Origin: an uncultured Gammaproteobacteria bacterium
GTDB lineage: Bacteria; Patescibacteriota; Microgenomatia; JALYQM01
Assembly: GCA_964403585.1 (NCBI GenBank)
Contig: CAYOFQ010000001.1
Coordinates: forward strand, 799,008 to 863,007
Direction of reading: 5' to 3'
Length of the DNA: 64,000 nt
The translations under genes and the position numbers were made by a program. Position 1 is the stretch's first letter. Each line of letters starts with the position of its first letter. Shown piece after piece: positions 7,385 through 22,425 of this stretch. The notes under the pieces are model-generated. The model did not search any database. It saw only the letters and a list, made by a program, of their open reading frames with translations, and was not told where the DNA came from.

Positions 7385-9874
7385 ATGAGCTTAAAAGACT
7401 ATCATAAAAAACGCCAGTTTACTAAAACGCCCGAACCAAAAGGCTCCGAAAAAAAAACGGCCGGACCGCTATCGTTCGTTATCCAAAAACATGAGGCCAC
7501 CCGTCTCCATTATGATTTTCGCCTCGAACTCAACGGCGTGCTTAAAAGCTGGGCAGTTCCCAAAGGCCCTTCTTTGAATCCGCATGATAAGCGCCTGGCA
7601 ATGATGGTCGAAGATCATCCCATCGATTATGCTAACTTTGAAGGGATTATTCCCAAAGGTAATTATGGAGCCGGTACAGTAATGGTCTGGGACCGGGGCG
7701 TTTATACTTCGTATGATGCTACTGAACGCGACGAAGCCGAAAAGATCCTGGAAAAACAGCTGAAGGCCGGACATCTCACTTTTATTATGCTGGGTGAAAA
7801 ACTCAAAGGAGAATTCGCACTTATTAAAACACATAACGGCGAGGAAAATGCCTGGATCCTGATCAAAAAAGGGGACGAGTATGCGTCCGAAACAACAGAC
7901 ATTCTTAAGCAGGATACATCAGTTATCTCCGGGCGCTCAATGAAAGAGATCGCCTCGCAAGCCGAAAAAAGGAAAGAAGTCTGGTACAGCAAACCCAAAG
8001 ACCTCGACATATCTAATCTGCCCAAAGGCACAATGCCCCACAAAATTAAACCAATGCTGGCCGGAACTGCCGATGAACCATTTGACCGGGAGGAGTGGCT
8101 ATTTGAAATTAAATATGACGGATATCGTGCGATTGCCGAGATTGAATCGGGTAAGGTGAAGCTGTATTCCCGAAACCAGCTTGCCTATAATCAAAAATTT
8201 GTACCGGTAGTACAGTCATTACAAAAATTTCCGGGGGATGCCGTTCTGGACGGGGAGATTGTAGTCGTCGACGAGATCGGACATCCGCGCTTTCAATGGT
8301 TGCAGGATTATCCCAACGACAAAGGAGAACTCATCTACTATGTTTTTGATATCTTATATTACGGTGGACGGGACTTAACATCGTTGCCGCTCATAGAGCG
8401 TAAGGAATTTCTCAAAGAGATCCTGCCGCCATTGACTCACCTCAAATTTAGCGGACACGTTGAAAAGGCCGGCATCGCCATGTTTCAGCAGGCTGAGCTG
8501 CTTGGAATTGAGGGAATCATGGCCAAAAACGCGGAAAGCACATACAAACAGGGTAGACGAAGCGATGACTGGCTAAAAATTAAAGCGATTAACAGGCAGG
8601 AAGTTGTAATTGCCGGTTTTACCGAACCGCGCGGGAGCCGGAAACACTTTGGCTCGCTCATTACAGGCATTTATAAAAATAAGAAACTAACCTATGTCGG
8701 GCACATTGGCACCGGCTTTGATGAGAAATTGCTTAAACACCTGTACGAAAAAATGAAACCACTTGAACAAAAGACCTGTCCGTTTTCAAAAGTGCCGGTA
8801 ACCAATGCTCCAGCCACCTGGCTAAAACCGAAACTACTTGCTGAGGTCTCATTCACACACCTCACTCAGGATGGGCAAATGCGACACCCGGTATTCCTTG
8901 GACTCAGAGAAGATAAAGCTGCAAATCATCTTAAATCAGAGCAAAACACATTTGCACTAACACCAAAAGACGCTTCAAGCAAAAAGACGACCATCGGCAG
9001 TCAGGATCTTACCTTTACCAATCTCTCCAAAATATTCTTTCCCGAAGAGAAATACACTAAAGGTGACCTCATTGAGTATTACCGGCAAATGGCACCCGTT
9101 ATTCTACCGTATTTAAAAGATAGGCCGGAGTCGTTATTACGCTATCCGAATGGCATAAAAAGTAAAGGATTTTACCAAAAAGATGCATCACTGCTGCATG
9201 AAGACTGGTTCGACAAAGTAAGTGTATATTCTGAATCAAATGACAAAAATATCGACTATTTACTCTGTCAGAATGAAGCTACGTTGCTCTATCTCATCAA
9301 TTTGGGCTGTATCGATTTGAACCCCTGGAGTTCCCGCGTAGTTCAACTAAATCATCCTGATTTTCTGATCATCGACCTGGACCCGGAGAAAACAGAATTC
9401 ACAAATGTTGTGAAGGCGGCACAAGCTACTCGTGAAGTACTGGAAGCGTGGGATATTCCTGCATATCCTAAAACTTCAGGAGCTACCGGCATGCATATTT
9501 ATGTACCGCTGGGCGCCAAATATACCTATGAACAGTCCCGGCAACTCGCCGAAATTCTCTGTATTCATATCCACGCTAAAGTTCCGCACATTACCAGTCT
9601 GGAACGTAGTCCCTCCAAACGCCAAGGCAAAGTATATCTCGACTACCTTCAAAACAGTGAAGGGCAGACATTAGCCAGCGTGTACAGCGTGCGACCGAAA
9701 CTCGGCGCAACTGTTTCAACTCCTCTCGAATGGTCGGAAGTTACGGCAAAATTGCATCCGTCACAATTTACCATCAAAAACATGCACAAACGAATTGAGA
9801 AAAAGGGCGATCTGTTTAAGCCGGTGTTAGGTAAGGGTATTGATATAGCACAAATTCTTAAGAAAATAACCTGA
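7385..9874 (+). CDS. ligD: DNA ligase D (phosphoesterase-ligase-polymerase, PE-Lig-Pol order)
   Basis: PE domain HYDFRLE. Ligase KxDG motif EIKYDGYRA. C-terminal primase-polymerase domain (LIIDLDP...). 829 aa. Confidence 0.9.
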   Translation: MSLKDYHKKRQFTKTPEPKGSEKKTAGPLSFVIQKHEATRLHYDFRLELNGVLKSWAVPKGPSLNPHDKRLAMMVEDHPIDYANFEGIIPKGNYGAGTVMVWDRGVYTSYDATERDEAEKILEKQLKAGHLTFIMLGEKLKGEFALIKTHNGEENAWILIKKGDEYASETTDILKQDTSVISGRSMKEIASQAEKRKEVWYSKPKDLDISNLPKGTMPHKIKPMLAGTADEPFDREEWLFEIKYDGYRAIAEIESGKVKLYSRNQLAYNQKFVPVVQSLQKFPGDAVLDGEIVVVDEIGHPRFQWLQDYPNDKGELIYYVFDILYYGGRDLTSLPLIERKEFLKEILPPLTHLKFSGHVEKAGIAMFQQAELLGIEGIMAKNAESTYKQGRRSDDWLKIKAINRQEVVIAGFTEPRGSRKHFGSLITGIYKNKKLTYVGHIGTGFDEKLLKHLYEKMKPLEQKTCPFSKVPVTNAPATWLKPKLLAEVSFTHLTQDGQMRHPVFLGLREDKAANHLKSEQNTFALTPKDASSKKTTIGSQDLTFTNLSKIFFPEEKYTKGDLIEYYRQMAPVILPYLKDRPESLLRYPNGIKSKGFYQKDASLLHEDWFDKVSVYSESNDKNIDYLLCQNEATLLYLINLGCIDLNPWSSRVVQLNHPDFLIIDLDPEKTEFTNVVKAAQATREVLEAWDIPAYPKTSGATGMHIYVPLGAKYTYEQSRQLAEILCIHIHAKVPHITSLERSPSKRQGKVYLDYLQNSEGQTLASVYSVRPKLGATVSTPLEWSEVTAKLHPSQFTIKNMHKRIEKKGDLFKPVLGKGIDIAQILKKIT

Positions 9875-9877
9875 ACG

Positions 9878-10468
9878 CTATAAGGAGTTTATCTTATCTG
9901 TAATGCGCTGGTAAAAATACGCACTGTACTTTTGCGCAAACGGCACAAAGAACGCGCGGGTATCTTCCACAAACCGCTTAAATTCGGCAGGACGGGATCC
10001 CTTAAAATCATCAATAGTCAGCAAGTTAACAGTTCTATCCGCCAACTTTACGATTCGTGCTTCATGCGAAGAATTCTCTAGTCGTTTCAGAATTTTTTGC
10101 GTCGCGGTAAAAAATTCTTCGCCCCAAACAGGATGCTCATTTTCTGCGGAAGACTTTGTTAAAGTCATGACAATATTCGCAACGTCAGCAGGATATTCAT
10201 ATCGCAATTGTTGCTCGGAAAATTCGGGATCATCCTCAACTGCATCGTGAAGTAACGCAGAAGCAACGGCTATTTCAGGTACTACATCCGAACCGTATGA
10301 AATAATAACCTCTGCCGCGACAGGTAAAATATGCCCTTCCAATACCGACGAACCGTCAAAACGTTTTTGTTTAGAGTGAGACTTTTCAGCTTGAGAGAAT
10401 GCACGCTGGATAATCAAAGAATTTATTTGTCTGGAAGCAAGTAATTTATTAAATTCGGTTACCACCAT
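9878..10468 (-). CDS. HD-domain phosphohydrolase, RelA/SpoT-like small alarmone hydrolase candidate
   Basis: ...GHILPVAAEVI...IAVASALLHDAVEDD matches the SpoT HD signature. 196 aa with no synthetase domain. Confidence 0.55.
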   Translation of the reverse strand: MVVTEFNKLLASRQINSLIIQRAFSQAEKSHSKQKRFDGSSVLEGHILPVAAEVIISYGSDVVPEIAVASALLHDAVEDDPEFSEQQLRYEYPADVANIVMTLTKSSAENEHPVWGEEFFTATQKILKRLENSSHEARIVKLADRTVNLLTIDDFKGSRPAEFKRFVEDTRAFFVPFAQKYSAYFYQRITDKINSL

Positions 10469-10590
10469 ACATTCTTAGTTTAATTATAGCAAACTAAACA
10501 CAATACTGTCATATGCTAATATGTGAGCATTTTAACACATTTAAGTGATTGCAGAGGTGAAAGCTTCTGCTATAATCTATAAATTATTTT

Positions 10591-11358
10591 ATGTCAACAG
10601 AAGCAGCATCTCCTATCATCCATATCGACACACTTCCCGATGCACCGGGCCAGCTTTTACCGCTCGTTCCAATCAGGGCCTTACTTCAGGAGACTATGAT
10701 AGGTATTGTACGGCCCGAAACACTGCAAAATAACTTGCAGCTCCTTGGGCAACCGGAACAACTACGAAGGCTAATAGTAGAGCTCCTCGAAGACGCCGAT
10801 GCAGTTATGGCGAATGCTGCAATTTCCGAACACCACGACCTTGGATTCGACAAATTGGTACTCGTTTCGGGAACAAACGGCCATCAACTCAGACTTCATT
10901 TATACGGTAAAGACACCAGAGAAGTAAAACCAGAAGGAGTTCATAATCATAAATTTGATTTTGGATCATACATCCTCTATGGCCGACTTGATAGTGAGAT
11001 ATTTCATCGACATCAGGGAGGTAAACCATTACATGAATATGTCGCCATGCCGTCTATAGATGCGCAAGTAGAAGCTTTTGACTATCGAGGAATGGCGGAG
11101 CTAATTCGGGTACATGCACTCTCTTTTGAACAAGGAACAATCTATACTATGAGCCACGGTGTGATCCATCGAGTTTGCTCCGTAGATGCGACCCGTCCAA
11201 CGGCAACTTTATTTCTCAGAACAGCAGCAATGCAAGCATCAGATTCTATCTTCACTCGGGATCTACTCACTAATGCCAGAGAGGTAAAACGCAGCCTTTT
11301 CACAACTGCGGAATACAGAAGGGTTTTGATAGAATTCCTGGAAAATCTACCAGAATAA
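10591..11358 (+). CDS. Hypothetical cupin-like protein (possible PCO/ADO-type thiol dioxygenase)
   Basis: His-rich cupin-like segment VHNHKFDFGSYILYG...FHRH. Assignment is tentative. Confidence 0.3.
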   Translation: MSTEAASPIIHIDTLPDAPGQLLPLVPIRALLQETMIGIVRPETLQNNLQLLGQPEQLRRLIVELLEDADAVMANAAISEHHDLGFDKLVLVSGTNGHQLRLHLYGKDTREVKPEGVHNHKFDFGSYILYGRLDSEIFHRHQGGKPLHEYVAMPSIDAQVEAFDYRGMAELIRVHALSFEQGTIYTMSHGVIHRVCSVDATRPTATLFLRTAAMQASDSIFTRDLLTNAREVKRSLFTTAEYRRVLIEFLENLPE

Positions 11359-11425
11359 ACACATTAAATTCGATTAAGAATACTTTGCACAACATTTTTA
11401 GTGAATTCAGCAAGTGTCATAACCC

Positions 11426-12016
11426 TTAGAACGAACCGGTTTTAACCTCTCCCGCCCGTTTATATGTCGCAACAATCACACCGGCAGGAGTAATGTGTGA
11501 CTCAGTTAACGCAAACGCTGCCGTAATTGACCCGGTATCAAACAATCGCTTGCCCTTTCCTAACGTCACCGGAAAAATTTTCAGCCACAACTCATCAACC
11601 AGATCATGCTTCAATAACGTCTGAATCAACGAAGCGCTTCCATGAACTTGAAGATCGGGTCCATCGGTTTCCTTTACTTTTTTGATGTCTTCGACGGTTT
11701 TTAGGAATACTGATGTCGCCCAGGGATGTTCGGTCATCGTTGTCGAAACAACATATTTGGTTGCCTTATTAATCCCGCCGCCGTCTTCATTATGATCCGG
11801 CCAATACGCTGCAAATATTTCGAATGTTTTACGACCGAGCAGTAAGTCAAACGGTTTACCCATTTGTTCACCCATAACCTTACCAAGTGATTCATCAAAG
11901 TATGGTACCGTCCATCCACCAAGGGTAAAATTACCGCTTGGATCTTCGGTTGGCCCGCCGGGACCTTGCATAACACCATCTAAAGACACAAAAGTTAAGA
12001 CATTGATTTTTCTCAT
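11426..12016 (-). CDS. RibD C-terminal domain / dihydrofolate-reductase-like family protein
   Basis: INVLTFVSLDGVMQGPGGP... signature. Paralog of 15173..15685. Confidence 0.7.
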   Translation of the reverse strand: MRKINVLTFVSLDGVMQGPGGPTEDPSGNFTLGGWTVPYFDESLGKVMGEQMGKPFDLLLGRKTFEIFAAYWPDHNEDGGGINKATKYVVSTTMTEHPWATSVFLKTVEDIKKVKETDGPDLQVHGSASLIQTLLKHDLVDELWLKIFPVTLGKGKRLFDTGSITAAFALTESHITPAGVIVATYKRAGEVKTGSF

Positions 12017-12054
12017 ATATCTTATTCTATCACTTATTGTTATATAGGTACATG

Positions 12055-12561
12055 TTATTTTGAAATCTCATCGAGGATCATAGCGACCACTGCATCTACT
12101 GTAATGGTCGTAGTATCTATGCGAAGTTCATTCTTGAGCAGCACCCGCTGAGACACTTCCGTGTTCCATTCGATCGCTTTTTCAAAGTTTTTGTATCCGC
12201 TATCTCTGGTCTCCTCTAATACCCGATTCTTGAGAACGGTATCATCAGTAACAACAAGCGTAAATATTTTATATTCACTTTTCTGAAATAGCTGCGGGAT
12301 CTGCTGTGTGCGAAACTCCTGTAAGTCGTTAACAATAACGTTTGAATACCCGTATTTAACGTAATTTCTTAGAATAAATACAAGATTTTCAAAAGACATT
12401 TGCTCATCCAGCTCACTTTGATTTGTCCACTCCCGGTTCAGGTGAAACTCGCGTAGCCAGCCAAATTCAACCAGTGGGGAATCTAATTTCGCTTTAAGAA
12501 GTTTACTAACCGTTGTCTTGCCAACACCCGGAGCACCGTTAACGAAAATAAGCGGAATCAT
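12055..12561 (-). CDS. P-loop kinase (AAA_33 / chloramphenicol-phosphotransferase-like)
   Basis: Walker A GAPGVGKTT near the N-terminus, about 170 aa. Confidence 0.55.
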   Translation of the reverse strand: MIPLIFVNGAPGVGKTTVSKLLKAKLDSPLVEFGWLREFHLNREWTNQSELDEQMSFENLVFILRNYVKYGYSNVIVNDLQEFRTQQIPQLFQKSEYKIFTLVVTDDTVLKNRVLEETRDSGYKNFEKAIEWNTEVSQRVLLKNELRIDTTTITVDAVVAMILDEISK

Positions 12562-12580
12562 AGTGTAAGAGCCTCAACTT

Positions 12581-12805
12581 TCAACTCATAATATCCGTTA
12601 ATAGTGAAACAATCTCCATTTTCTCTTCAAAAGTACGAATATCTGACATATCCGGCGTTGCGCCAGCCATTCGCACCACAGCTTTATCTACACAACCCAC
12701 TGCAGTTACGATAATACCTGCTTGAATATGATGTTCTATAACAAACTGCTTAATTTCCTTTTTGAGATCTTGACCCCGATGAAGCCGGAAAGCATGGGTT
12801 TTCAT
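12581..12805 (-). CDS. Small hypothetical protein (DUF296/PPC-like fragment?)
   Basis: 74 aa, overlaps neighbours by a few nt. No strong motif. Confidence 0.3.
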   Translation of the reverse strand: MKTHAFRLHRGQDLKKEIKQFVIEHHIQAGIIVTAVGCVDKAVVRMAGATPDMSDIRTFEEKMEIVSLLTDIMS

Positions 12806-12809
12806 AAGA

Positions 12810-13364
12810 TTACCACCCTATATTTCTTTTAATTGTATCAGTTGTTTCATAAACAGTCTGATTTGTCGTATCCAATACAATCCAATCAGGAAAATTTTCT
12901 GGTAACATCAGCGGATAGAGAGAATCAATAATACTTTCCGGTAAATTTTTACTTCTGGAACGGTTACGTTCAAGAATTTTCTCTTTGGTTGGCGCCAGCA
13001 GCGCAGTCGCATACGACACCCCGGCAAAATAGTTTTTCCAAACTGCAAACAGATCATGATGATTGTGAACAACATCCTCAACAATCACTTTGAAATTTTT
13101 GGCAATAAAATTCCGCGCGAGAGACGCTTCATTCTCGAAAGAAAGATAATACTGCAATCTATGTTCATCAGTCCACGCTTCAGCCGGACTCTTGAATTCG
13201 CTTTTTACTAATGCACGAACATCGTCACCGGAAATTACCACTGCCCGATCAATTGTTTTTGCCAGAGCACTGGCAACTGAACTTTTTCCCGATCCGGGTG
13301 CGCCGGTAATAAGGACAACATCAAAAGACTGTGGTGCCATAAATATACAAACTAAGTATATCAA
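12810..13364 (-). CDS. P-loop kinase (zeta-toxin/CPT-like fold)
   Basis: Walker A GAPGSGKSS. Second kinase-like gene in the same operon. Confidence 0.55.
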   Translation of the reverse strand: MIYLVCIFMAPQSFDVVLITGAPGSGKSSVASALAKTIDRAVVISGDDVRALVKSEFKSPAEAWTDEHRLQYYLSFENEASLARNFIAKNFKVIVEDVVHNHHDLFAVWKNYFAGVSYATALLAPTKEKILERNRSRSKNLPESIIDSLYPLMLPENFPDWIVLDTTNQTVYETTDTIKRNIGW

Positions 13365-13400
13365 ATTCCATTTTCACTGTTTCAAGTGTAGAATCTCTTT

Positions 13401-13805
13401 ATGGACAAGACATTTATAGACAAACTTGCTTTTATTGAAATTCAAAAGCGTAAAGTACTCGTTTCCCTCAGTAAAGGAAAAGCTACCTGGTATATTCCGG
13501 GTGGAAAACGCGAAAACGGGGAAACCGATGAACAGGCGCTGATTCGCGAAGTACAAGAAGAACTTTCGGTTACTCTAAAACCCGAAACGATCAAACTTTA
13601 TGGCGTCTTTGAATCACAAGCTCATGGAAAACCTGAAGGAACCGTAGTCAGGATGAATTGTTATACTGCAGAATTTGAAGGCACTTTAACTCCCAGTGCA
13701 GAAATTGAACAATTAGAATTTTTTAACCATAGACAGAAAGTGCTGTGTTCACCGGTAGACAACTTAATATTCGATGATCTGAATAACAAAGGATTAATTG
13801 ATTAA
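13401..13805 (+). CDS. NUDIX hydrolase
   Basis: Nudix box GGKRENGETDEQALIREVQEELS. Confidence 0.8.
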   Translation: MDKTFIDKLAFIEIQKRKVLVSLSKGKATWYIPGGKRENGETDEQALIREVQEELSVTLKPETIKLYGVFESQAHGKPEGTVVRMNCYTAEFEGTLTPSAEIEQLEFFNHRQKVLCSPVDNLIFDDLNNKGLID

Positions 13806-14277
13806 TATGACCATTAAAAACATCATCTATGAAACCGACAACTTCTTTGTCGACACTCCCGAACATCCGTTGATTGACCGGCTCGAAGGTGGGCATATTA
13901 GAATTACTCCGAAAGTCAAAGTCAGAGACAGAACCCGGTTATCGCCGGATTTGGCCAAAGAATACATGATGCTGTCAATGCTTGTCGGCGAAGCAATGAA
14001 AAATGGGCTTAGCAAAAGAGGCATAGATATCGGCTTAATAAACTATCAGGAAATGGGGAACTGGGCAGTATTTGAACCTGAAGGACCGTTAATGCACACG
14101 CATGTGTTCGGCCGAGCAACAACGGCAACTGTGCAAAAATACGGAGAAGCAGTTAATTTACCGAAAATCGAATCCGGATTTTATAAAAACTTCCAGCGGT
14201 TAAGTGATGAGGATATCAACGCAATAAAGGAAGAAGTACTAACATTAGTAACTACTGAAAAATACCGGAACTTTTAA
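13798..14277 (+). CDS. Hypothetical protein (weak HIT-like HTHVFG motif)
   Basis: ORF of 159 aa overlapping the upstream stop. Only a weak His-triad-like motif. Confidence 0.35.
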   Translation: MINMTIKNIIYETDNFFVDTPEHPLIDRLEGGHIRITPKVKVRDRTRLSPDLAKEYMMLSMLVGEAMKNGLSKRGIDIGLINYQEMGNWAVFEPEGPLMHTHVFGRATTATVQKYGEAVNLPKIESGFYKNFQRLSDEDINAIKEEVLTLVTTEKYRNF

Positions 14278-14286
14278 ATCCGCATT

Positions 14287-14649
14287 TTGCAAACAATGTA
14301 TAATACACCTATGGAAAAAGAAAATTCACCGGAGTCACCAACGCAATCAACGGCAGGCGGCACATCCTTCATAACGCTACAGAAAGCAATTGAACTAGGG
14401 GAATATGAACCGGTCAACCTTGCTAAGTTCGACGAGTGGCACAAACTCAGCCAACATGCCCAATTCCAGCTTATTCGTAAAGGACTGGATAATCATGAGC
14501 ACCAGCTAATGAAGGAGTGGGCTGAAATAAATAATGTCCTCGATTTTAGCAAAAAACCCCAATTGCAAACGGTGCTGAGAAACATCGAGGCAAGAATCCG
14601 TCAGGTACACCTGGACAGAGAACGATTGTATATGGAGTTTATAAAATAA
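14287..14649 (+). CDS. Hypothetical protein
   Basis: 120 aa ORF in operon context. Confidence 0.35.
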   Translation: MQTMYNTPMEKENSPESPTQSTAGGTSFITLQKAIELGEYEPVNLAKFDEWHKLSQHAQFQLIRKGLDNHEHQLMKEWAEINNVLDFSKKPQLQTVLRNIEARIRQVHLDRERLYMEFIK

Positions 14650-14663
14650 TTAATGGAGTACAT

Positions 14664-15056
14664 ATGACAGCTTCAGAAAATACTTCCGCAGCACAAGAGA
14701 TCGACGCCATAATTAGCAAGTACGACGACTGGCGTGGTCAGAAACTTCATCAAATTCGTACACTAATCAAAGAGGCCAATCCTGAAATAATCGAAGAGGT
14801 TAAATGGAAAAAACCAACTAACCCAGATGGAATTCCGGTTTGGTCGCATAATGGCATTGTCTGCATGGGAGAAACATATAAAGCTCATCTGAGGATTACC
14901 TTCGCCAAAGGAAAATCGCTCAATGATCCTAAAGGGCTGATTAATTCGTTTCGGGCAATGATTCTCCACGAGGAGGATAGTTTTGACGAGGCAGCGTTTA
15001 AAAAACTTATCCAAGAAGCGGTTGCACTGAATAATAAAACCAAAAACCAAAAATAA
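14664..15056 (+). CDS. DUF1801 (YdhG-like) family protein
   Basis: KYDDWRGQKLHQIRTLIKEANPEIIEEVKWKKP pattern typical of DUF1801. Confidence 0.5.
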   Translation: MTASENTSAAQEIDAIISKYDDWRGQKLHQIRTLIKEANPEIIEEVKWKKPTNPDGIPVWSHNGIVCMGETYKAHLRITFAKGKSLNDPKGLINSFRAMILHEEDSFDEAAFKKLIQEAVALNNKTKNQK

Positions 15057-15172
15057 AATGTGTTCCAGCCACACAATTACGATAATTTCGCTGAAAATTC
15101 GTACGTAGCAAACACTACACCTGTCTTAGTAATCTGTCCGTCAACCGCTTTAAAGCGCTGAGGCATGGTCCC

Positions 15173-15685
15173 CTAGGCAAACAACTTTTTGCCACTGCCA
15201 AGAGTAACCGGGTACGTCCGGATATGCATTCGATCGATAAGATCATGTTTAAGGAGGGTTTGGATGAGATTTCCGCTTCCCCAAACACACAGATCCGGAC
15301 CTTCCGAATTTTTGAGTTTTTTAATTTCTTCTACTACATTTCCGGTTATCAATTGCGGGTTACTCCAGGGTAGCTCAATGGTATTATGCGAAACAACATA
15401 TTTAGTGGCCCGATCAAAAGGAACGCCCCAACGGGGTTCATCCTTGTGAAATGGCCAAAAACCGGACCAGATATCATAGGTTACCCGTCCAAGCAATAAA
15501 TCGAACGGCGCCGCGAGTATTCTGGTGTCCGTCATAGCATCCGCGCCACCATCTTCATCAGCCCAGTCCATTTGCCATCCACCATACTTAAAACCATTTG
15601 AGGTATCTCCCTGAGGACCACCCGGAGCCTGCATAACGCCATCAAGAGTAATAAATGTTGTAGTAATGATTTTTCTCATAAGCAA
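15173..15685 (-). CDS. RibD C-terminal / DHFR-like family protein (paralog)
   Basis: ITTTFITLDGVMQAPGGP..., clear paralog of 11426..12016. Confidence 0.7.
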   Translation of the reverse strand: MLMRKIITTTFITLDGVMQAPGGPQGDTSNGFKYGGWQMDWADEDGGADAMTDTRILAAPFDLLLGRVTYDIWSGFWPFHKDEPRWGVPFDRATKYVVSHNTIELPWSNPQLITGNVVEEIKKLKNSEGPDLCVWGSGNLIQTLLKHDLIDRMHIRTYPVTLGSGKKLFA

Positions 15686-15722
15686 TTTCTCAACTAAGTG
15701 TGTTTAAAATACCATAAGGTCT

Positions 15723-16340
15723 ATGGCGAAATACTTCGACACCGTGCTGATCATTATCTCCGCCTTAATATGGCTCGCTATCACGGCATATTTGCGAATT
15801 AAAAAGAAAAAAGACTTCGCCTGGCTCCTGTTCTTTACAATTTTTTACATCTATTTTCTCAAGGTTTTAGATTACACTTTATTTCAGTACCAGTCGTTAC
15901 TGATTATAAAATCCATTAACCCAAATATTATTTTAAACGGAACCACTGCAGGCGAAGAAGTTAATCTCATACCTCTGATGACACTCACGTCCCGGGATAT
16001 CCAGACATCGGTATTAAATATTCTGCTGTTTATACCGTTTGGATCCGGACTGCCTTTTATTACCAATCTTCGAATGAAGAAAATACTTGGTACAGGCGCA
16101 CTGGTGAGTATCAGTATTGAACTACTTCAACTCGTATCAGGCTATCTGGGAGGAATCACTTTCAGAGTTACGGACATCAATGATGTGCTATTTAATACTG
16201 CCGGAGTTGCCATAGGTTATGCACTGTTCAGGGTATTTTCACTAACCTACCAAATGGTAATTCCCAACTCTGAAACTACCACTAACTCTATCTTTCGATA
16301 TATACATAAAATGACAAGGGTAACTAAGCAAATTCCATGA
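15723..16340 (+). CDS. VanZ-like membrane protein
   Basis: Four-helix VanZ pattern with the LNILLFIPFGSGLPF segment. Confidence 0.55.
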   Translation: MAKYFDTVLIIISALIWLAITAYLRIKKKKDFAWLLFFTIFYIYFLKVLDYTLFQYQSLLIIKSINPNIILNGTTAGEEVNLIPLMTLTSRDIQTSVLNILLFIPFGSGLPFITNLRMKKILGTGALVSISIELLQLVSGYLGGITFRVTDINDVLFNTAGVAIGYALFRVFSLTYQMVIPNSETTTNSIFRYIHKMTRVTKQIP

Positions 16341-16443
16341 TACCCACAAGTGTGGTTACAAATTACTTTTATTAGGAACTGCTTGCTATTTCTTTGCTAT
16401 ACTTTGTACAATTAGGCAATTACTCTTCTTAAAACTTTGTTGT

Positions 16444-16872
16444 ATGGCTGAATTTATATATCTCTATATTGTTCTCAGTCTTTCAATGCTCGTTTCCCCT
16501 TACGTTGTCCCGTTAGCAATTATTTCTGGGCTTACCCTTTTTATTCTACATAAAAAAATGGGTCGAAAACCTATGAGATTCTTTGCAGCAAGCTCAATTA
16601 TACTTATTATCTTTACATATCCCTTATTTTTTTTCTCTACTGTATTTGGTAGTGTAAACCTTGAGCAAGCTTTATTTACTTTTGGAATATTAACAGGAAT
16701 TATTGTAAGTGTTTCGGCGGCAATATGTGCTCTTTATTTTAATAAAAATATTAAAAAATTAACTTTTCATGAATATCGCAATTACGTATTAATCACAGCC
16801 ACCCCTGGAATTAGTTTTATAGCTTTGTTATTAACTTTTAATGTGATTGAGTATTATTTGTCATATAGATAA
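16444..16872 (+). CDS. Hypothetical 4-TM membrane protein (AT-rich)
   Basis: Hydrophobic 142-aa ORF. Composition differs from the backbone. Confidence 0.35.
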   Translation: MAEFIYLYIVLSLSMLVSPYVVPLAIISGLTLFILHKKMGRKPMRFFAASSIILIIFTYPLFFFSTVFGSVNLEQALFTFGILTGIIVSVSAAICALYFNKNIKKLTFHEYRNYVLITATPGISFIALLLTFNVIEYYLSYR

Positions 16873-17164
16873 GTTATTGTTAAGAGTACAAAATTTCACT
16901 CTTAATACTTGAAAATAGCCAATATATAAATCTGTTATCAAGATATAAGCCATTTTATCAACGAGTATTCTTAGTCAAAAGAGAAGGTTGTCGTTGTTTT
17001 GTTCGGAATCTACAACAGAAGCAAAGATCCTCACGCCCGCTTAGTTAATATCCATCTAATCTTACGAGCTAAGGATATATTGACAAGTTAATAGTATAAT
17101 AGCATAATATTAACAGTAGTTGATATATCATTAATATAAGAAATAAGCTCAACACGAAGGGGGG

Positions 17165-17437
17165 GTGATAATAATGGGTATTATTGTAACTTTAATCATT
17201 GCCGGTATTATTGGCTGGATAGCATCAATGATCATGAAGACTGATGGACAAATGGGTATACTTGCTAATGTAATTGCTGGCATAGTCGGTGGCTTCATAG
17301 GTACGTTTCTTTTCGGATTTATTGCTCCGGCTACCCCTACAGATAATGGACTTAATTTAGCAGGGATAGTTGTTGGTGTTATTGGCGCATGTATCGCAAT
17401 TTTCATTTGGAAGGCTTTATCGAAAAACAGGCTTTAA
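17165..17437 (+). CDS. GlsB/YeaQ/YmgE transglycosylase-associated family small membrane protein
   Basis: Gly-rich helices IIAGIIGWIASMIM...GIVGGFIGTFLFGFIAP. Strong SD (aagggggggtga) 8 nt upstream. Confidence 0.75.
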   Translation: MIIMGIIVTLIIAGIIGWIASMIMKTDGQMGILANVIAGIVGGFIGTFLFGFIAPATPTDNGLNLAGIVVGVIGACIAIFIWKALSKNRL

Positions 17438-17918
17438 AATAAATAAAGTTCTAACTATCCTAATCATCTTTTATTAGGAAATGTTAGAACTTTTTTATAT
17501 GGTGGTGGAAAGGGGCGGTTCCATTAGCTGGATCCAAAGTCCCAGATACTTAGGATAAGTAAAACGAATGACCCAACAACTTTGTAAGAACAAAATTTAT
17601 GTAAAGAAGATCCAATCTCTAGTAATAATAAATATGAGTTACATTTCAATCAAATTTTATCGCAGGTAATAAACTCAAGTTCGAAAACTTTACCTCCCAC
17701 ACATATCTGCCAGTAGGAGGATGTTGTTGGGATTAATGAATGAAATTAGAACTTATTTTTGTAGGTTAGATGAATCTAATTAAGACTAAATAGTAGAAAT
17801 AATTGAATACAATAATTGTTCATTAAGGCGAGATTATGGTATAATCCCTTAAATATTAGTTTTCTTAATGATTGTTAATTAGAGTACGGAGAGTTATTAT
17901 AAAAGTAATACTATACTT

Positions 17919-18911
17919 ATGTTAAATACAAATATTAAGTCTAAAATAAAAGAACTTTCCAAAATTAGAGGTAACTCTGAAATAATAGTCTATTTTACTT
18001 CAAATTCTAGACCAGAAAATTTATTTGCATCAAATATTGCATCTGACGTTCTACCTTTTTTAGGAACAATATTAGAAAAGTTGGGAAAAAAGAAAAAAAT
18101 ATCACTTTTTATATTTAGCCTTGGCGGATTCTTAGAAACTCCCTGGCCATTTGTGAATATAATTAAAGAATATTGTGAAGAATTCGAGGTTATAGTCCCA
18201 GACAAAGCCTTTAGCGCAGCAACATTAATTTGTTTAGGTGCAGATAAAATTATAATGACTCCTAAAAGTTTACTTAGTCCAGTAGATCCTTCAGCCGACT
18301 TACAATTAAGTGAAAAAATTCGTAGAAATATTCAAGTAGAAGATATTTTTGGATTTATTGAGTTTACTAAAGAAAAGTTCGGCATTAACAAAGAAGAACT
18401 ACAAATTGAAAGCCTAAAGCTTTTAAGCAGTGAAATACCTCCCTCATTTTTAGGATCAATTTATAGAACACAAAAATTAATATCGAGTTTGACTAAACGA
18501 CTTCTTTCCTTACATAAAGATAAGATTAAAGAGGCTGAGTTAAATAAGATTGTAGAAAAAATGACTCGTGATCTGTTTGCACATAATCATGTAATAAACA
18601 GAAGAGAAGCTAAAGACGATATTGGATTACCCAATATTGAATATGCAAATGAAAAAGAAGAAAAATTAATTAATGAGATTTTTTCCTTATATTCAGACGA
18701 GATGAAACTTGATAGAGAATTCGACGTCAAAGGATACTTAGGAGATAACACATCAAAACAATATGATTTAGTTAGAAGCATAATTGACTCAACAGACATT
18801 ACATATGGATTTTTATCAAAATATCAAATAAATATAGTTGATGATCAATTTAATATATTAAATACTTACAATAATTGGCAACTATTAAATGGAGGTACAA
18901 ATGAGCACTAA
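17919..18911 (+). CDS. ClpP/crotonase-fold serine peptidase-like protein (SDH/S49 family candidate)
   Basis: EIIVYFTS...ISLFIFSLGGFLETPW...VIVPDKAFSAATLICLGADKIIM resembles the S49/SDH catalytic Ser core. Confidence 0.5.
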   Translation: MLNTNIKSKIKELSKIRGNSEIIVYFTSNSRPENLFASNIASDVLPFLGTILEKLGKKKKISLFIFSLGGFLETPWPFVNIIKEYCEEFEVIVPDKAFSAATLICLGADKIIMTPKSLLSPVDPSADLQLSEKIRRNIQVEDIFGFIEFTKEKFGINKEELQIESLKLLSSEIPPSFLGSIYRTQKLISSLTKRLLSLHKDKIKEAELNKIVEKMTRDLFAHNHVINRREAKDDIGLPNIEYANEKEEKLINEIFSLYSDEMKLDREFDVKGYLGDNTSKQYDLVRSIIDSTDITYGFLSKYQINIVDDQFNILNTYNNWQLLNGGTNEH

Positions 18912-19119
18912 ATTAAATTCTTTAACTAATAACAAATATATTACAAAAATGCCTTATACAACTGATTCATATACAAATTCATCATCTAAGAATATAAATA
19001 CAATAAACTATAAGTCTTTAAACGATTTAATCATATCTAAAAACATTAAGGTTCAAACTAAAGATATACCTGAAAGAGAAATTAAAGAAATGTCGAGAAT
19101 TATATCAAAAAGTATTTAA
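18889..19119 (+). CDS. Hypothetical small protein
   Basis: 76 aa, N/S/T/K-rich, overlaps the upstream gene end. Could be spurious. Confidence 0.25.
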   Translation: MEVQMSTKLNSLTNNKYITKMPYTTDSYTNSSSKNINTINYKSLNDLIISKNIKVQTKDIPEREIKEMSRIISKSI

Positions 19120-19124
19120 TATAG

Positions 19125-19634
19125 ATGTATTCCACTCCGCCAGATAACAATAAACTATATCAAGGTGACATAATTCAAAACGGCTCTTTTTATATGCCTG
19201 CCAAGGTAGATCCTAATAACTCGTCCGGCATAAAGACGCCGCAAATTTATTCTGGCAAATTAATGATTATGACCCAAACATGTGATATTAGAGACAATGA
19301 TATTGTCCATGTTTGTCGCGTTCTTAGTTCGGCAGATTTTACACAAAAACTAATTGAAAAAGGTAAAACAATGGAGCAAATTTCTGGAGTATTAGGATTA
19401 CTTCGAAGCAAGAAAACTCATTGGAAAGAAAAAAGCTTATTTAACTGGTTTTATCTTCCTGAGAAGGACGATCTAGAAGAATCAATTGCGATATTAGACA
19501 GCAACGGAATGGTCAATTTAGATGAATTATTGATAGAAGATAGAGTTGCGTATCTTTCTGATCGAGCTCGACATTGGCTACAATATTATTTAATGCGATT
19601 ATGGGGAAGACCATTCTATTGGGAAGAAAACTAA
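19125..19634 (+). CDS. Hypothetical protein (island cargo)
   Basis: 169 aa with no recognisable motif. Sits in an operon with the peptidase. Confidence 0.4.
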   Translation: MYSTPPDNNKLYQGDIIQNGSFYMPAKVDPNNSSGIKTPQIYSGKLMIMTQTCDIRDNDIVHVCRVLSSADFTQKLIEKGKTMEQISGVLGLLRSKKTHWKEKSLFNWFYLPEKDDLEESIAILDSNGMVNLDELLIEDRVAYLSDRARHWLQYYLMRLWGRPFYWEEN

Positions 19635-19650
19635 TCTTCTGCAATTTTAT

Positions 19651-19866
19651 TTAAAAAGGGAAAATATCCTTAACTTTCACACCTAATTTCTTAGCAATTT
19701 TCTCAAGCAAATCTAAAGAAGGAGATTTTCTGCCTTGTTCAATATGTCCCATATGAGTACGGCTAATGCTCAAGAGTTCGGCTAACTGCTCTTGAGTTAT
19801 TCCTTTTTCTTGGCGAAGTGCTTTTATGTGCTTTCCTAATTTTTGTGACTTAGATCCAACTGGCAT
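19651..19866 (-). CDS. XRE-family (Cro/CI-type) HTH transcriptional regulator
   Basis: GITQEQLAELLSISRTHMGHIEQGRKSPSLDLLEKIAKKL HTH_3 signature. Confidence 0.8.
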   Translation of the reverse strand: MPVGSKSQKLGKHIKALRQEKGITQEQLAELLSISRTHMGHIEQGRKSPSLDLLEKIAKKLGVKVKDIFPF

Positions 19867-19867
19867 T

Positions 19868-19884
19868 AGCTATATTTGATAGCT
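19868..19884. promoter_or_regulatory. Inverted repeat AGCTAT-N5-ATAGCT at the XRE start, candidate operator
   Basis: Perfect 6-bp arms read directly from the sequence, immediately upstream of the ATG at 19866. Confidence 0.3.
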
Positions 19885-19940
19885 GTGAGCAAGAAAACAC
19901 CACTCTAGCCATGAGCTAGCATTTGTACCAAAAAATGCGC

Positions 19941-19968
19941 TTGACACAATAAAATACAAATCTATACT
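19941..19968 (+). promoter_or_regulatory. Sigma70-like promoter TTGACA-N16-TATACT, divergent from the XRE gene
   Basis: Near-consensus hexamers read directly. A small ORF with an SD follows. Confidence 0.4.
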
Positions 19969-19994
19969 AAAGAAAGTAGAGGAAAAGCAGATTT

Positions 19995-20162
19995 ATGAAA
20001 ACTATAGATAAAACAGATAAGATGTTTTTATTTTTAATAGCTCTCTTTATTATTCTCATCGCGATATATTACTTTTTCATCTATAAAGCTAAATGCGAGA
20101 ACCTTACAAATTTACCAATAGGACTAGTCCCCTTAAGATGTTTGCCGTTGTCCAGTTTTTAA
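19995..20162 (+). CDS. Small single-TM peptide (55 aa), unlisted in the ORF track
   Basis: SD GGAAAAG 6 nt upstream of the ATG. Translation MKTIDKTDKMFLFLIALFIILIAIYYFFIYKAKCEN... Confidence 0.3.
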   Translation: MKTIDKTDKMFLFLIALFIILIAIYYFFIYKAKCENLTNLPIGLVPLRCLPLSSF

Positions 20163-20662
20163 GGTAAAATTTAAATACATAGGCACACAAATAAAAAAAT
20201 GCGCTACTAAATAAATCCGTACAAAATAGCCGACCGGTCTAGTCGGACACACGGGCCCAAACCAGAAACGAGCGCCTGGTTATCGAATAGCCTACAAACC
20301 AATCTTAAAAGTAAGAGGGGCTATTCGATGAAACTTCCCAAAGAGGCAGTTGAGGAATTTCAACAAATTTATAATTCAAAATATCCAGATAAAATAAACT
20401 ACGAAGAAGCAGAAGTAAAAGCGTCTCAATTCCTGCGATTGCTCGCTCCGGAGCACGGCAGCGATAATAGCGATACGCAAAACGGGAATGCTACGGAGTG
20501 TGTGTCAAGGGCGAATGCCCTTGACACGAGTTCCCCCGTGTAATAAGACGGGAGGAAATGGAACATTTCCTCCTAATAGCACTTTACGGTTTCTTGGTTT
20601 TGGAAGCGTCGCGGGCAGTAGGGTGTTGTAACACCTTCTGAACCGCTAACCGGTTAGCATTT

Positions 20663-22047
20663 ATGAAAAAAGTATTTCAATATTGTCGAAAATCCACGGA
20701 ATCTGAAGACAGGCAAGTCATTTCTATTGACTCTCAAAAAGCCGAATTAAAAAAGTTTGCTGACTCTCACGGTTTAGAAATAGTTAAGATATTTACAGAA
20801 TCAAAATCTGCAAAAGAACCCGGCAGACCTATCTTCAACGAAATGATGGCAAGAGTTTATAAGGGCGAAGTTTCTGGAATATTATGTTGGAAATTAGATA
20901 GGCTTGCTCGAAATCCTGTTGATGGTGGCTCTGTAATCTGGTCTTTAAAAAGCAACGGAATAGAAATATTCACTCCTTCACAAACATATACTCAAGATAA
21001 TGATTCAGTCGTGATGATGTATTTAGAATTTGGAATGGCTCAGAAATATATAGATGATTTAAGTAAAAATGTTAAAAGAGGATTAAGAACTAAAGTTGAG
21101 TTAGGATGGTATCCATCACTTGCTCCACTTGGATATATAAATATAAAAACTCCAGAATATAAATTCCCAATAATCGCCAATGATACACTGCGCTTTGAAA
21201 AAGTAAAAAACCTATTCATACAAATACTAGAGGGATTACCACCAGCTTATGTATGGAGAAAAGCTACAGAAGAGAAACTCTTAAATACTAAACTGGCAAA
21301 CCTATACCATACTCATCATTCTATGCGCTTCTAAACAATCCTTTCTATTCAGGAACTTTCGAATATCCTAGAGATAGTAGCAATTTCTATATTGGTAAGC
21401 ATGAAGCAATGCTCTCGAAGTCTCAACATCAAAAAGTTCTCCACATCCTTCATAATAAATTTAAAAATCGAAGAAGAGTACATAATATTGATTTAACCAA
21501 CGTTTTTAAATGTGGCGAATGTGGTAATCAAATAACGGCCACCAAGAAATTAAAGTATTATCCGAGAACAAATAATTTTGCTGAATATATATACTATCAC
21601 TGTACTCAGATTAGTAAGAAAACAAAGTGTTCACAAAAGCCAATCGCCGAAAAAGATTTAGTAATTCAATTGAATGATCTCTTTGGCAAATTATACGCAC
21701 CGCAAGACTTCTACACCTGGGCTAAAAAGTGGATGAAAGTACTTCATGAAGAAGAGACTCATAAAATGTCCAATAACCAGAATATGCAAAGTAAGGAGCT
21801 CTCAGCATTACAAGATAAATTAGATACATTGATCGAATGGCGAATGAATGAAAAAATTGACGAAGAAACGTTTGAACGGAATGAAAAGAAACTTAAAAAA
21901 CAAATAATTCATCAAAAAGAATTATTAAACAACACTTATTACGATCGAGAATGCTGGCATGAGAAAGTAGAAAAATCTCTCAACCTAGCTCAGAGCATTT
22001 CGATGAAGTACAAACAAGCTGAACCAGAAGAAAACGTAGCATTCTAA
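20663..22047 (+). pseudogene. Large serine recombinase disrupted by a frameshift (two ORFs: 20663..21334 and 21409..22047)
   Basis: ORF1 has the catalytic YCRKSTESEDRQ resolvase domain. Reading frame +1 across 21301..21408 gives IPYSSFYALLNNPFYSGTFEYPRDSSNFYIGKHEAMLSK, the canonical recombinase-domain motif, continuing into ORF2 (zinc ribbon CGECGN...YHCTQ...C plus coiled coil). The frames switch between about 21290 and 21330. Confidence 0.75.
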
Positions 22048-22226
22048 ATATTATTGGATCGAACTTTATTTTAAAAGACAAAAAAGCTTATTTTAAGACT
22101 AATTTTTCTTATTCTATTTATGCGGACAGTGATAAATGGGTGAAAGAGAAAAATGACAGAATCGAACTAGCGGAACATACCAATATAATAACTAAAAACC
22201 CTGAATTACAACCTGACAATCTAGTT

Positions 22227-22300
22227 TGGTTGGGAAGCCTGGATTCGAACCAGAAATAAAGGCTTCAAAGGCCTCTGTGATACCGTTTCACCACTTCCCA
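22227..22300 (-). tRNA. tRNA-Gln (anticodon UUG)
   Basis: Manual fold of the reverse complement. Acceptor stem TGGGAAG/CTTCCCA with U1-A72, D-stem GTGA/TCAC, anticodon stem GAGGC/GCCTT with loop CTTTGAA, T-loop TTCGAAT, encoded CCA. Confidence 0.75.
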
Positions 22301-22425
22301 TCGTATTCGCTGGACACATAAAGGACAAAAGGGCATTGATATACCCTCATATCTTTGGTAGTATACATAAATAGTTATATTTAGACAATATTAGAAGGAT
22401 AAGCGGCTAAGACGGCCGTTTTTTA

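Follow-up and report, generated by a model that had tools for sequence, protein, structure and literature searches.

An apparently undescribed peptidase-led three-gene module, possibly a toxin–antitoxin-like system, on a serine-recombinase island beside a tRNA-Gln gene

Introduction

Dedicated proteases that are encoded together with the small protein they cleave are found in several mobile or defence loci, including ImmA/ImmR of ICEBs1, CapP/CapH of CBASS and the COG2856-Xre three-component toxin–antitoxin (TA) systems. The proteases of these systems are Zn metallopeptidases, and their substrates are helix-turn-helix (HTH) repressors. In SocA-SocB, the toxin is handed to ClpXP by the antitoxin, which serves as adaptor, and in type II TA systems (MazEF, PemIK and Kis-Kid) it is housekeeping ClpAP or Lon that degrades MazE. 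Here, we describe a three-gene cassette encoding an SDH-family ClpP-fold serine peptidase (A), a small, fast-evolving polar protein (B) and a MazF/CcdB-fold protein (C). It lies on an AT-rich island beside a tRNA-Gln gene in a 64,000-nt stretch of DNA from an uncultured bacterium (contig CAYOFQ010000001.1, positions 799,008 to 863,007; hereafter 'the window', with positions counted from its first nucleotide). Judging from sequence comparisons, A-B-C looks like an apparently undescribed tripartite TA-like or abortive-infection system.

Two described proteins offer structural parallels to C. CalpL, a Lon protease fused to a SAVED sensor that belongs to type III CRISPR loci and is accompanied by the ECF sigma factor CalpS, cleaves the MazF-fold protein CalpT and thereby turns an inert complex into a growth-arresting response; the extra helices of CalpT block its MazF groove, and CalpT proved to be an anti-sigma factor (bioRxiv 10.1101/2021.12.06.471393, 10.1101/2024.05.08.593097). 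In type II Gabija, GajC represents a MazF-like domain that is split and carries an inserted helical segment (PMC13069673). The present locus resembles CalpL-CalpT-CalpS, at the level of its genes, in that a specific protease is encoded beside a MazF-fold protein with extra helices. It differs in that A has the SDH/ClpP fold instead of being a Lon protease and in that a separate small protein, B, is present; no SAVED sensor of cyclic tetra-adenylate (cA4), sigma factor, DUF2080 or cas gene was found in or near the module. With ImmA/ImmR, CapP/CapH and COG2856-Xre it shares a dedicated protease encoded with its expected small substrate, and an XRE-family regulator in the window matches the PADLOC capH model (5e-16) as well as generic HTH models. 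Unlike in those systems, however, the protease is a ClpP-fold serine peptidase and B lacks an HTH. An XRE gene accompanies the module inconsistently, at 3 of about 17 loci, for which reason we rejected it as a component. Type II TA systems differ in having no counterpart to the dedicated ClpP-fold peptidase, which is an obligatory third partner here. In addition, B has no AbrB, ribbon-helix-helix or HTH DNA-binding domain, and C lacks sequence-level membership, carries a helical insertion of ~40 residues, does not appear to conserve the catalytic Arg and Thr and has an acidic isoelectric point (pI).

Results

All three open reading frames (ORFs) of the cassette are present on the same strand, as the first-pass annotation of the window had indicated (Table 1), and its assignment of the first product to ClpP-fold, SDH/S49-like peptidases was borne out. 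Protein A scores above the gathering cut-off of PF01972 (4.7e-13, 49.3 bits, cut-off 31.3), with only residues 57-125 covered by the match, and is recognized by phrog_11747 (1.4e-34). It falls far below the cut-off of the NCBIfam equivalog NF047768 'Clp_like_SDH' (51.7 bits, cut-off 250); RefSeq nonetheless names a relative of A from an Escherichia coli prophage 'SDH family Clp fold serine proteinase'. We identified 78 homologues of A, and in an alignment of 26 sequences G69, G70, S99, D123, E141, H222, R228 and E230 were invariant. The predicted nucleophile, Ser99, is situated in FSAAT within a G-x-x-S-A-x-T elbow, and in the family profile it aligns with the nucleophile Ser of PH1510-N, an archaeal NfeD protease, and with that of ClpP. 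Because Ser99 is both invariant and aligned with the PH1510-N nucleophile, A is likely to be an active peptidase. Compared with SDH, NfeD (PH1510-N, 'STOPP'), ClpP and S49 peptidases, A differs in that it conserves neither the His/Asp positions of ClpP nor the Lys position of NfeD and in that its C-terminal half is family-specific. This half holds H222, R228 and E230, of which H222 and E230 are candidate partners of Ser99. No membrane segment was predicted in A.

Gene B was originally listed as encoding 76 aa. The ORF exists, but its most likely start reduces the product to 72 aa; the Shine-Dalgarno sequence GGAGG lies at 18891-18895, and genes A and B overlap by 11 nt. Serine, threonine, asparagine and glutamine make up 40% of B, which ends in an amphipathic helix (PEREIKEMSRIISKSI), and a C-terminal motif is common to the B proteins of four other loci (L002, L003, L058 and L050; loci from other assemblies are given L numbers throughout). 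Searches of the Pfam, PADLOC, phrog and NCBIfam libraries returned no family match for B, the only PADLOC result being a DpdC fragment at 0.0018. A common N-terminal [YF]xxTx[DE] motif, considered as a protease recognition site, is visible by eye in the small proteins, but it was unsupported by hidden Markov model (HMM) and hhalign comparisons between groups and was rejected.

For C, an unknown of 169 aa in the first pass, a fold can now be assigned. Foldseek searches with its structure model (predicted local distance difference test (pLDDT) score of 92.9) against the PDB and against viral models were concordant in returning the MazF/CcdB fold, which is interrupted in C by a helical insertion of ~40 residues (about 69-107). 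The SH3-like MazF/CcdB barrel is a solid assignment for a predicted structure; RNase activity is not a solid one. Within the family, Q13, G14, D15 and C53 are invariant. An hhalign comparison of the C family with a PemK protein gave a probability of 0.2%, placing C outside PF02452, and searches with C retrieved no PDB sequence match, PADLOC match, phage record or plasmid record. We rejected a hit to the 'anti-sigma factor' 8her_B (E = 0.6, over a 'STACDL' stretch), which is RsgI of Clostridium thermocellum and a chance match. By its model and its QGD/SQTCD signature, C is predicted to define a new and distinct MazF-fold sequence family. Distant members of this family (E about 1e-14) were also seen at L077 (2423-4227) and L078 (3820-5504), where there is no SDH peptidase. 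There, the C-like protein is the last of an overlapping three-gene set whose first two products, of ~270 aa and ~128 aa, have no Pfam match. This set may represent a parallel system that begins with another component.

The three genes recur together well beyond the window. Orthologous A-B-C trios, with identities of 46-60%, occur in unrelated surroundings in L002 and L003 and contain the closest two homologues of C (46-47% identity). In L002 an XRE gene is convergent with the trio, as in the window, while in L003 the trio adjoins an IS1595 transposase gene. A scan of metagenome contigs for the C family yielded 30 loci. Wherever the match to C was strong and sufficient upstream DNA was available (11/11 loci), a peptidase gene was located 220-270 nt upstream with an ORF of 61-87 aa in between; the end of a peptidase gene was visible at six further, truncated C-family loci. 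More trios were found around other peptidase homologues. An ORF of 61-87 aa occupies the B position in all three-gene loci, so that a small gene without a known antitoxin domain always stands directly upstream of C, where an antitoxin gene would be expected. These comparisons indicate that A-B-C is a conserved and widely mobile operon. The earlier description as an unassigned three-gene cargo therefore holds in one respect, as no named system fits, but not in treating the genes as idiosyncratic cargo.

The module recurs in defence-island or mobile-element locations. Immediately upstream of it we found three different restriction-modification systems, namely a fusion of the Eco57I type in L064, a C5 methylase with a BsaWI-like endonuclease in L054 and an N6/N4 methylase with a MutH/Sau3AI-like endonuclease in L065 and L067. 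Bro-N and DUF6922-AbiEii flank it in L083/L084, and transposases adjoin it in L003 and L087. One further neighbour concerns a possible partner of the peptidase: in L060, a gene for a ClpB/ClpC-like AAA+ unfoldase (AAA_2, ClpB_D2-small; 1-2142) lies directly upstream of a three-gene module on the same strand, which could be coincidence or could hint at a partnership of certain SDH peptidases with an unfoldase. In a Patescibacteria genome (GCA_018900445.1), the MazF-fold gene is broken into pieces of 107 aa and 54 aa (L083 7212-7724 / L084 3742-4065) and the peptidase and small genes are intact, a state that fits toxin inactivation being tolerated or selected.

Relatives of A are also widespread in viral sequences, where the third gene varies. 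The peptidase family occurs on 46 IMG/VR viral contigs, with a small, overlapping ORF after it in almost every case. The slot after this ORF holds a C-family gene twice (L006 and L017), a genuine PemK/MazF toxin once (L010; 110 aa, PF02452 8e-12) and PIN-domain toxins in three cases (L007, L009 and L024); the PemK and PIN toxin genes are each preceded by the small ORF, and nothing recognizable was found in the slot at the remaining viral loci. Taken as a whole, these gene orders fit a modular mobile system in which the peptidase and small-protein pair would be invariant and combined with three kinds of toxin, always with the small protein before the toxin. In E. coli, the form found comprises a 331-aa relative of A (33% identical) and an overlapping, unannotated S/T/N-rich ORF of 59 aa. 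On the opposite strand, it fills the moron slot that separates the Q antiterminator gene from the holin gene in a lambdoid prophage, and 47 of the 5,426 complete genomes carry it. Other close phage relatives of A likewise lie in moron positions, either between Q and holin or beside terminase genes on variable strands. A prohead context was seen only for remote relatives, namely in L046 after a portal gene and in the head module of Porphyromonas phages. We rejected a prohead-protease interpretation of the phage relatives, whose contexts are mixed and mostly non-structural. Neither the surroundings of the cassette in the window nor any of the three-gene loci contain genes for portal, capsid, terminase or stomatin proteins.

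The cassette is carried on a compositionally foreign stretch of ~6 kb at tRNA-Gln that also carries a large serine recombinase gene. In 500-nt windows, GC content is 0.26-0.35 over 16250-22250, compared with 0.41-0.45 in both flanks; it is lowest at 18500-18999 (0.256) and rises locally to 0.40-0.44 at 20250-21000. GC at third codon positions (GC3) is 0.18-0.34 in island genes and 0.33-0.46 in 12 flanking genes. Windowed GC and codon usage thus confirmed the drop to about 30% that had been spot-checked in the first pass, although the baseline is ~43% and not the 50% given there. The right limit, at 22227-22231, is firm: homology with four relatives begins at 22225-22231, that is, at the tRNA-Gln 3' end. 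On the left, the boundary is uncertain and was placed at about 16341-16443 from composition only, GC declining directly after the VanZ gene, which ends at 16340. We detected no attL or other meaningful flanking repeat around the island, and no displaced tRNA-Gln remnant at its left end within the window. The best flanking pair (16289-16310 / 22350-22371, 82% identical) was rejected as an att candidate because its right copy is conserved between tRNA-Gln and pyruvate kinase in 5/5 genomes, with or without an element. A second assembly of this organism, obtained independently (Logan; L001), is 100% identical over the only part that it covers, 16888-20588.

As the first pass had noted, the tRNA-Gln 3' end faces the large serine recombinase gene. 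Its first ORF (20663-21334) matches Resolvase (PF00239, 1.4e-24) and its second (21409-22047) matches Zn_ribbon_recom. The 1-nt frameshift reported between them is present in the sequence and adjoins an AAA run; as it stands, the sequence does not encode an uninterrupted Resolvase-Recombinase-Zn-ribbon polypeptide. Insertion of a single nucleotide gives back a 461-aa protein with Resolvase (5.6e-24 after this repair), Recombinase (PF07508, 2.4e-5) and Zn_ribbon_recom (PF13408, 2.4e-6). The frameshift could be an assembly error, given that the break is at a homopolymer and lies outside the coverage of L001; otherwise the recombinase may now be disabled.

Four related genomes were compared at this site (L080, L089, L090 and L091, with pyruvate kinases 91%, 82%, 82% and 84% identical, respectively, to that of the window). 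L080 and L091 share the order tRNA-Gln, pyruvate kinase, GalU, SecE and NusG and have neither recombinase nor cassette beside tRNA-Gln. They do not, however, provide the clean empty site whose existence the first pass had suggested checking. All four relatives are entirely different in the DNA to the left of the tRNA, which leaves the left end undefined. At the same position, L089 has an XRE gene (41% identity to the window XRE), a 71-aa ORF and a serine recombinase gene, with different cargo that includes a DUF4238 protein (PADLOC 2.8e-8), and L090 has an intact 440-aa serine recombinase; both recombinases are 33-34% identical to that of the window. Since two relatives bear different recombinase elements at the site, the tRNA-Gln 3' flank is an integration hotspot for serine-recombinase elements with variable cargo. 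The best reading of the island is that a large serine recombinase placed it beside the tRNA-Gln 3' end. It has the features of known large-serine-recombinase islands (Resolvase-Recombinase-Zn-ribbon architecture, a recombinase gene abutting the site, variable cargo and the sister elements in L089 and L090), differing from them in its interrupted recombinase ORF, undefined attL/attR and very small size (about 6 kb). Leaving its cargo aside, we regard the island as an ordinary element of the serine-recombinase type.

Some further observations concern the site and its host. The L089 recombinase (8300-9837) is likewise split, into ORFs of 306 and 206 aa with a 4-nt overlap, at a place other than the break in the window, and its second ORF extends into the tRNA-Gln 3' end. 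The acceptor stem of tRNA-Gln is GGGAAG...CTTCCC in the three genomes with a recombinase at the site, including the window, and GGGCTG...CAGCCC in both recombinase-free genomes; the spacer between tRNA and pyruvate kinase in the window is nonetheless nearest to that of recombinase-free L080. The elements could bring or convert the tRNA-Gln, in a sample of five genomes with no second tRNA copy. Named relatives of the pyruvate kinase (52-53% identity) belong to Patescibacteria or Saccharimonadales, so the host, represented by a 1.57-Mb contig, is most likely a candidate phyla radiation (CPR) bacterium, an assignment made from these named relatives only. The closest genome, L080 (CAZHTP010000007.1), has a pyruvate kinase that is likewise nearest to named Patescibacteria and Saccharimonadales, and its Gammaproteobacteria label is probably a misclassification. 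DUF5674, seen adjoining a Patescibacteria module, is also present.

Left of the island, the 6.5 kb at 9846-16340 hold small P-loop kinase-like, NUDIX, HIT-like, DUF1801-like, RibD_C-like and VanZ genes. In the flanks of the four relatives we found no orthologues of the window genes at 9878-17437; the place of 9846-16340 is taken there by other genes for small enzymes. The tract from a conserved 829-aa gene to tRNA-Gln is hypervariable, yet its composition left of the island is native.

The remaining island genes lie on either side of the cassette. The 142-aa predicted membrane protein forms a one-member cluster. Downstream of it, the GlsB/YeaQ/YmgE-type gene is preceded by TTGACA-17-CATAAT (17080-17108), which is the best promoter-like site in the region, and has on its 3' side a 14-bp hairpin with a T-run (within 17442-17496); it looks like an independent transcription unit. 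On the other side, the XRE gene points towards the cassette and away from the genes on the recombinase side. The first pass had placed an XRE switch with an operator palindrome, a divergent promoter and the cassette upstream of the recombinase gene. The XRE gene, the palindrome and the promoter-like site all exist, but the XRE gene, being convergent with the cassette, cannot be a divergent switch for it, and none of the three is placed so as to control the cassette. Promoter-like sites are no more frequent in the region than in shuffled sequence (31 versus 27.6 +/- 5 expected); 'consensus-like promoter' and 'operator' are therefore descriptions and not evidence. Upstream of the recombinase gene, none of 100 shuffles equalled the folding of the structured stretch at 20170-20665. 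This stretch contains perfect hairpins, for example TGTGTCAAGGGC-GAAT-GCCCTTGACACG, and a perfect 11-nt inverted repeat (20282/20319) brackets the start of a 71-aa ORF (20328-20543). An Rfam search of the island matched only the tRNA, leaving the structured stretch without a match, and no homologues of the 71-aa ORF were found. The 71-aa ORF of L089, also directly before its recombinase gene, has no sequence similarity to it.

Table 1 Coordinates of the cassette, the other island features and the E. coli two-gene form (window positions unless another record is named)
Feature	Position	Strand	Remarks
AT-rich left part of island	16341..17918	none	GC drop, low GC3 of its two genes (0.22, 0.31)
142-aa predicted membrane protein, orphan	16444..16872	+	GC 0.298, GC3 0.217
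90-aa GlsB/YeaQ/YmgE-type (Transgly_assoc) small membrane protein	17165..17437	+	PF04226 5.7e-11
Gene A, 330-aa SDH-family ClpP-fold serine peptidase	17919..18911	+	PF01972
Gene B, 72-aa polar protein	18901..19119	+	ATG 18901, GGAGG 5 nt upstream
Gene C, 169-aa protein with predicted MazF/CcdB fold	19125..19634	+	family motifs MY..QGDI, SQTCDI, FYLP, FGRP
71-aa XRE-family HTH regulator	19651..19866	-	HTH_3 1.4e-16
Imperfect palindrome CTAGCCATGAGCTAG	19905-19919	+	between XRE gene and rightward genes
Promoter-like site TTGACA-16-TATACT	19941-19968	+	between XRE gene and rightward genes
55-aa hydrophobic ORF	19995..20162	+	weak phrog_8950 match, 1.2e-3
GC-richer, strongly structured stretch upstream of recombinase gene	20170..20665	+	RNA fold z-score -5.5
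Large serine recombinase gene	20663..22047	+	-1 frameshift between 21292 and 21334
tRNA-Gln(UUG)	22227-22300	-	only tRNA in window; Rfam 63.4 bits; right island limit
E. coli two-gene form	L092 2229-3396, plasmid NZ_CP081704.1		also 47 E. coli chromosomes

Discussion

We propose that A-B-C is a protease-gated, TA-like conflict module whose net effect would be abortive infection, and we put the probability of this reading at roughly 0.5. C would be the effector that arrests growth. B, whose gene immediately precedes that of C in the manner of antitoxin genes, would keep C inactive through its C-terminal helix, and A would set the state of the system by cleaving B, releasing C upon a signal such as phage infection. 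The outcome would be abortive infection on phage attack, with addiction to the island as an incidental effect. We infer each of these elements: the toxicity of C, its neutralization by B, the activity and target of A, the trigger and the role in phage defence. The proposal that B restrains C and that A cleaves B follows from the invariant pair of A and B being combined with three interchangeable kinds of toxin. Circumstantial support for defence or abortive infection comes from the MazF fold of C, from PemK and PIN toxins in the same slot and from the restriction-modification and AbiE neighbours.

Several observations weigh against this proposal. C has no sequence similarity to MazF or PemK, and none of the 52 family members has a Pfam match. 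On inspection of alignment A3, the positions of the MazF catalytic Arg and Thr do not appear to be conserved, and the family is acidic (median pI of 5.9), unlike RNA-cleaving MazF toxins. C may thus not be a nuclease, or may be no toxin at all. Similarly, B lacks a DNA-binding domain and a consistent acidic charge, and the B proteins of different module types are not detectably homologous (hhalign probability <=5.7%). In A, the ClpP His position is occupied by D123 and the NfeD Lys position is not conserved. PADLOC-DB v2 contains no match for A or C (E <= 0.1), nor for the E. coli relative of A, in agreement with the impression of the first pass that none of the three proteins belongs to a named defence system. 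Finally, most phage-borne relatives, including those of E. coli, consist of A and the small ORF without a recognizable toxin. Such two-gene forms are common, so the toxin would not be essential to whatever the A-B core does.

This last point is the starting point of an alternative that we consider unlikely, in which the protease is itself the effector. A would cleave an essential host or phage protein, as Lit does, B would be an inhibitor or pro-region, and the toxin gene would be an optional hitch-hiker. It would explain why A and the small overlapping ORF form the invariant core on the 46 viral contigs and in E. coli prophages with no toxin gene following, and why translational coupling links the small ORF to A and not to C. 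It does not sit well with the retention of all three genes at every strong C-family locus, and hitch-hiking hardly explains why the third slot repeatedly holds classical TA toxins in antitoxin-toxin order.

Alternatively, but with still lower likelihood, A could cut C instead of B, as in CalpL-CalpT, for example in or near the helical insertion, thereby either activating a latent toxin or destroying an inhibitor domain and freeing a bound partner, with B as an adaptor or regulator of A. The insertion in C recalls those of CalpT and GajC, and an acidic C apparently without MazF catalytic residues is what would be expected of a non-nuclease adaptor. However, the module has no SAVED/CARF sensor, sigma factor or CRISPR context, and the canonical PemK (110 aa) and PIN toxins found in the same slot have no insertion to cut.

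A type VI-like arrangement seems very unlikely. In this case A, perhaps with B as adaptor, would degrade C constantly, and an end to expression of the module, whether by phage shut-off or by loss of the island, would let C accumulate and arrest growth. SocA-SocB is a precedent, a ClpP-fold enzyme comes first in the operon and B has none of the typical antitoxin features. Nevertheless, the operon holds no unfoldase partner for an SDH/NfeD-type peptidase, a ClpB-like gene being nearby only in L060, and ATPase-free degradation of a compact MazF barrel (pLDDT 92.9) is implausible.

Barely credible, in our judgement, is that the genes form no conflict system and are phage head-morphogenesis remnants (a prohead protease with scaffold-like proteins) or an NfeD-stomatin-related module for membrane or stress proteostasis, passive on a decaying island: ClpP-fold proteases are commonly prohead proteases, there are weak matches to head-maturation protease families, distant relatives lie in the Porphyromonas phage head module and after the portal gene of L046, PH1510-N, an NfeD protease, is the nearest sequence relative with a solved structure and a GlsB-type membrane gene lies upstream, but the cassette and the three-gene loci lack portal, capsid, terminase and stomatin genes, the close phage relatives are in moron positions, no capsid-assembly role is known for a MazF-fold protein or for PemK/PIN toxins, and A has no predicted membrane segment.

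Returning to the protease-gated module, a broader and more tentative proposition is that the SDH peptidase and its hypervariable small protein constitute a hitherto unrecognized, widespread immune or addiction platform that extends from Patescibacteria to E. coli prophages. Its toxins (QGD/SQTCD MazF-fold, PemK and PIN) would be interchangeable, and the peptidase would sense infection, with cleavage of the small protein freeing the toxin. Such a platform would amount to a new class of tripartite defence system made up of toxin, antitoxin and protease. Our full-text search, which covered literature outside subscription journals, found no paper that ties SDH/PF01972 peptidases to defence or to MazF or PIN toxins.

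If the proposal is correct, A-B-C would be a TA-type system with its own trigger protease in place of housekeeping Lon or Clp, and it would make the long-open question of how type II TA toxins are released on phage attack directly testable. For such work, the E. coli prophage two-gene form offers a convenient model of the core in a standard host. The module would also represent an additional defence family that is absent from current catalogues, as indicated by the lack of a PADLOC match, and would be among the few candidate immune modules native to Patescibacteria.

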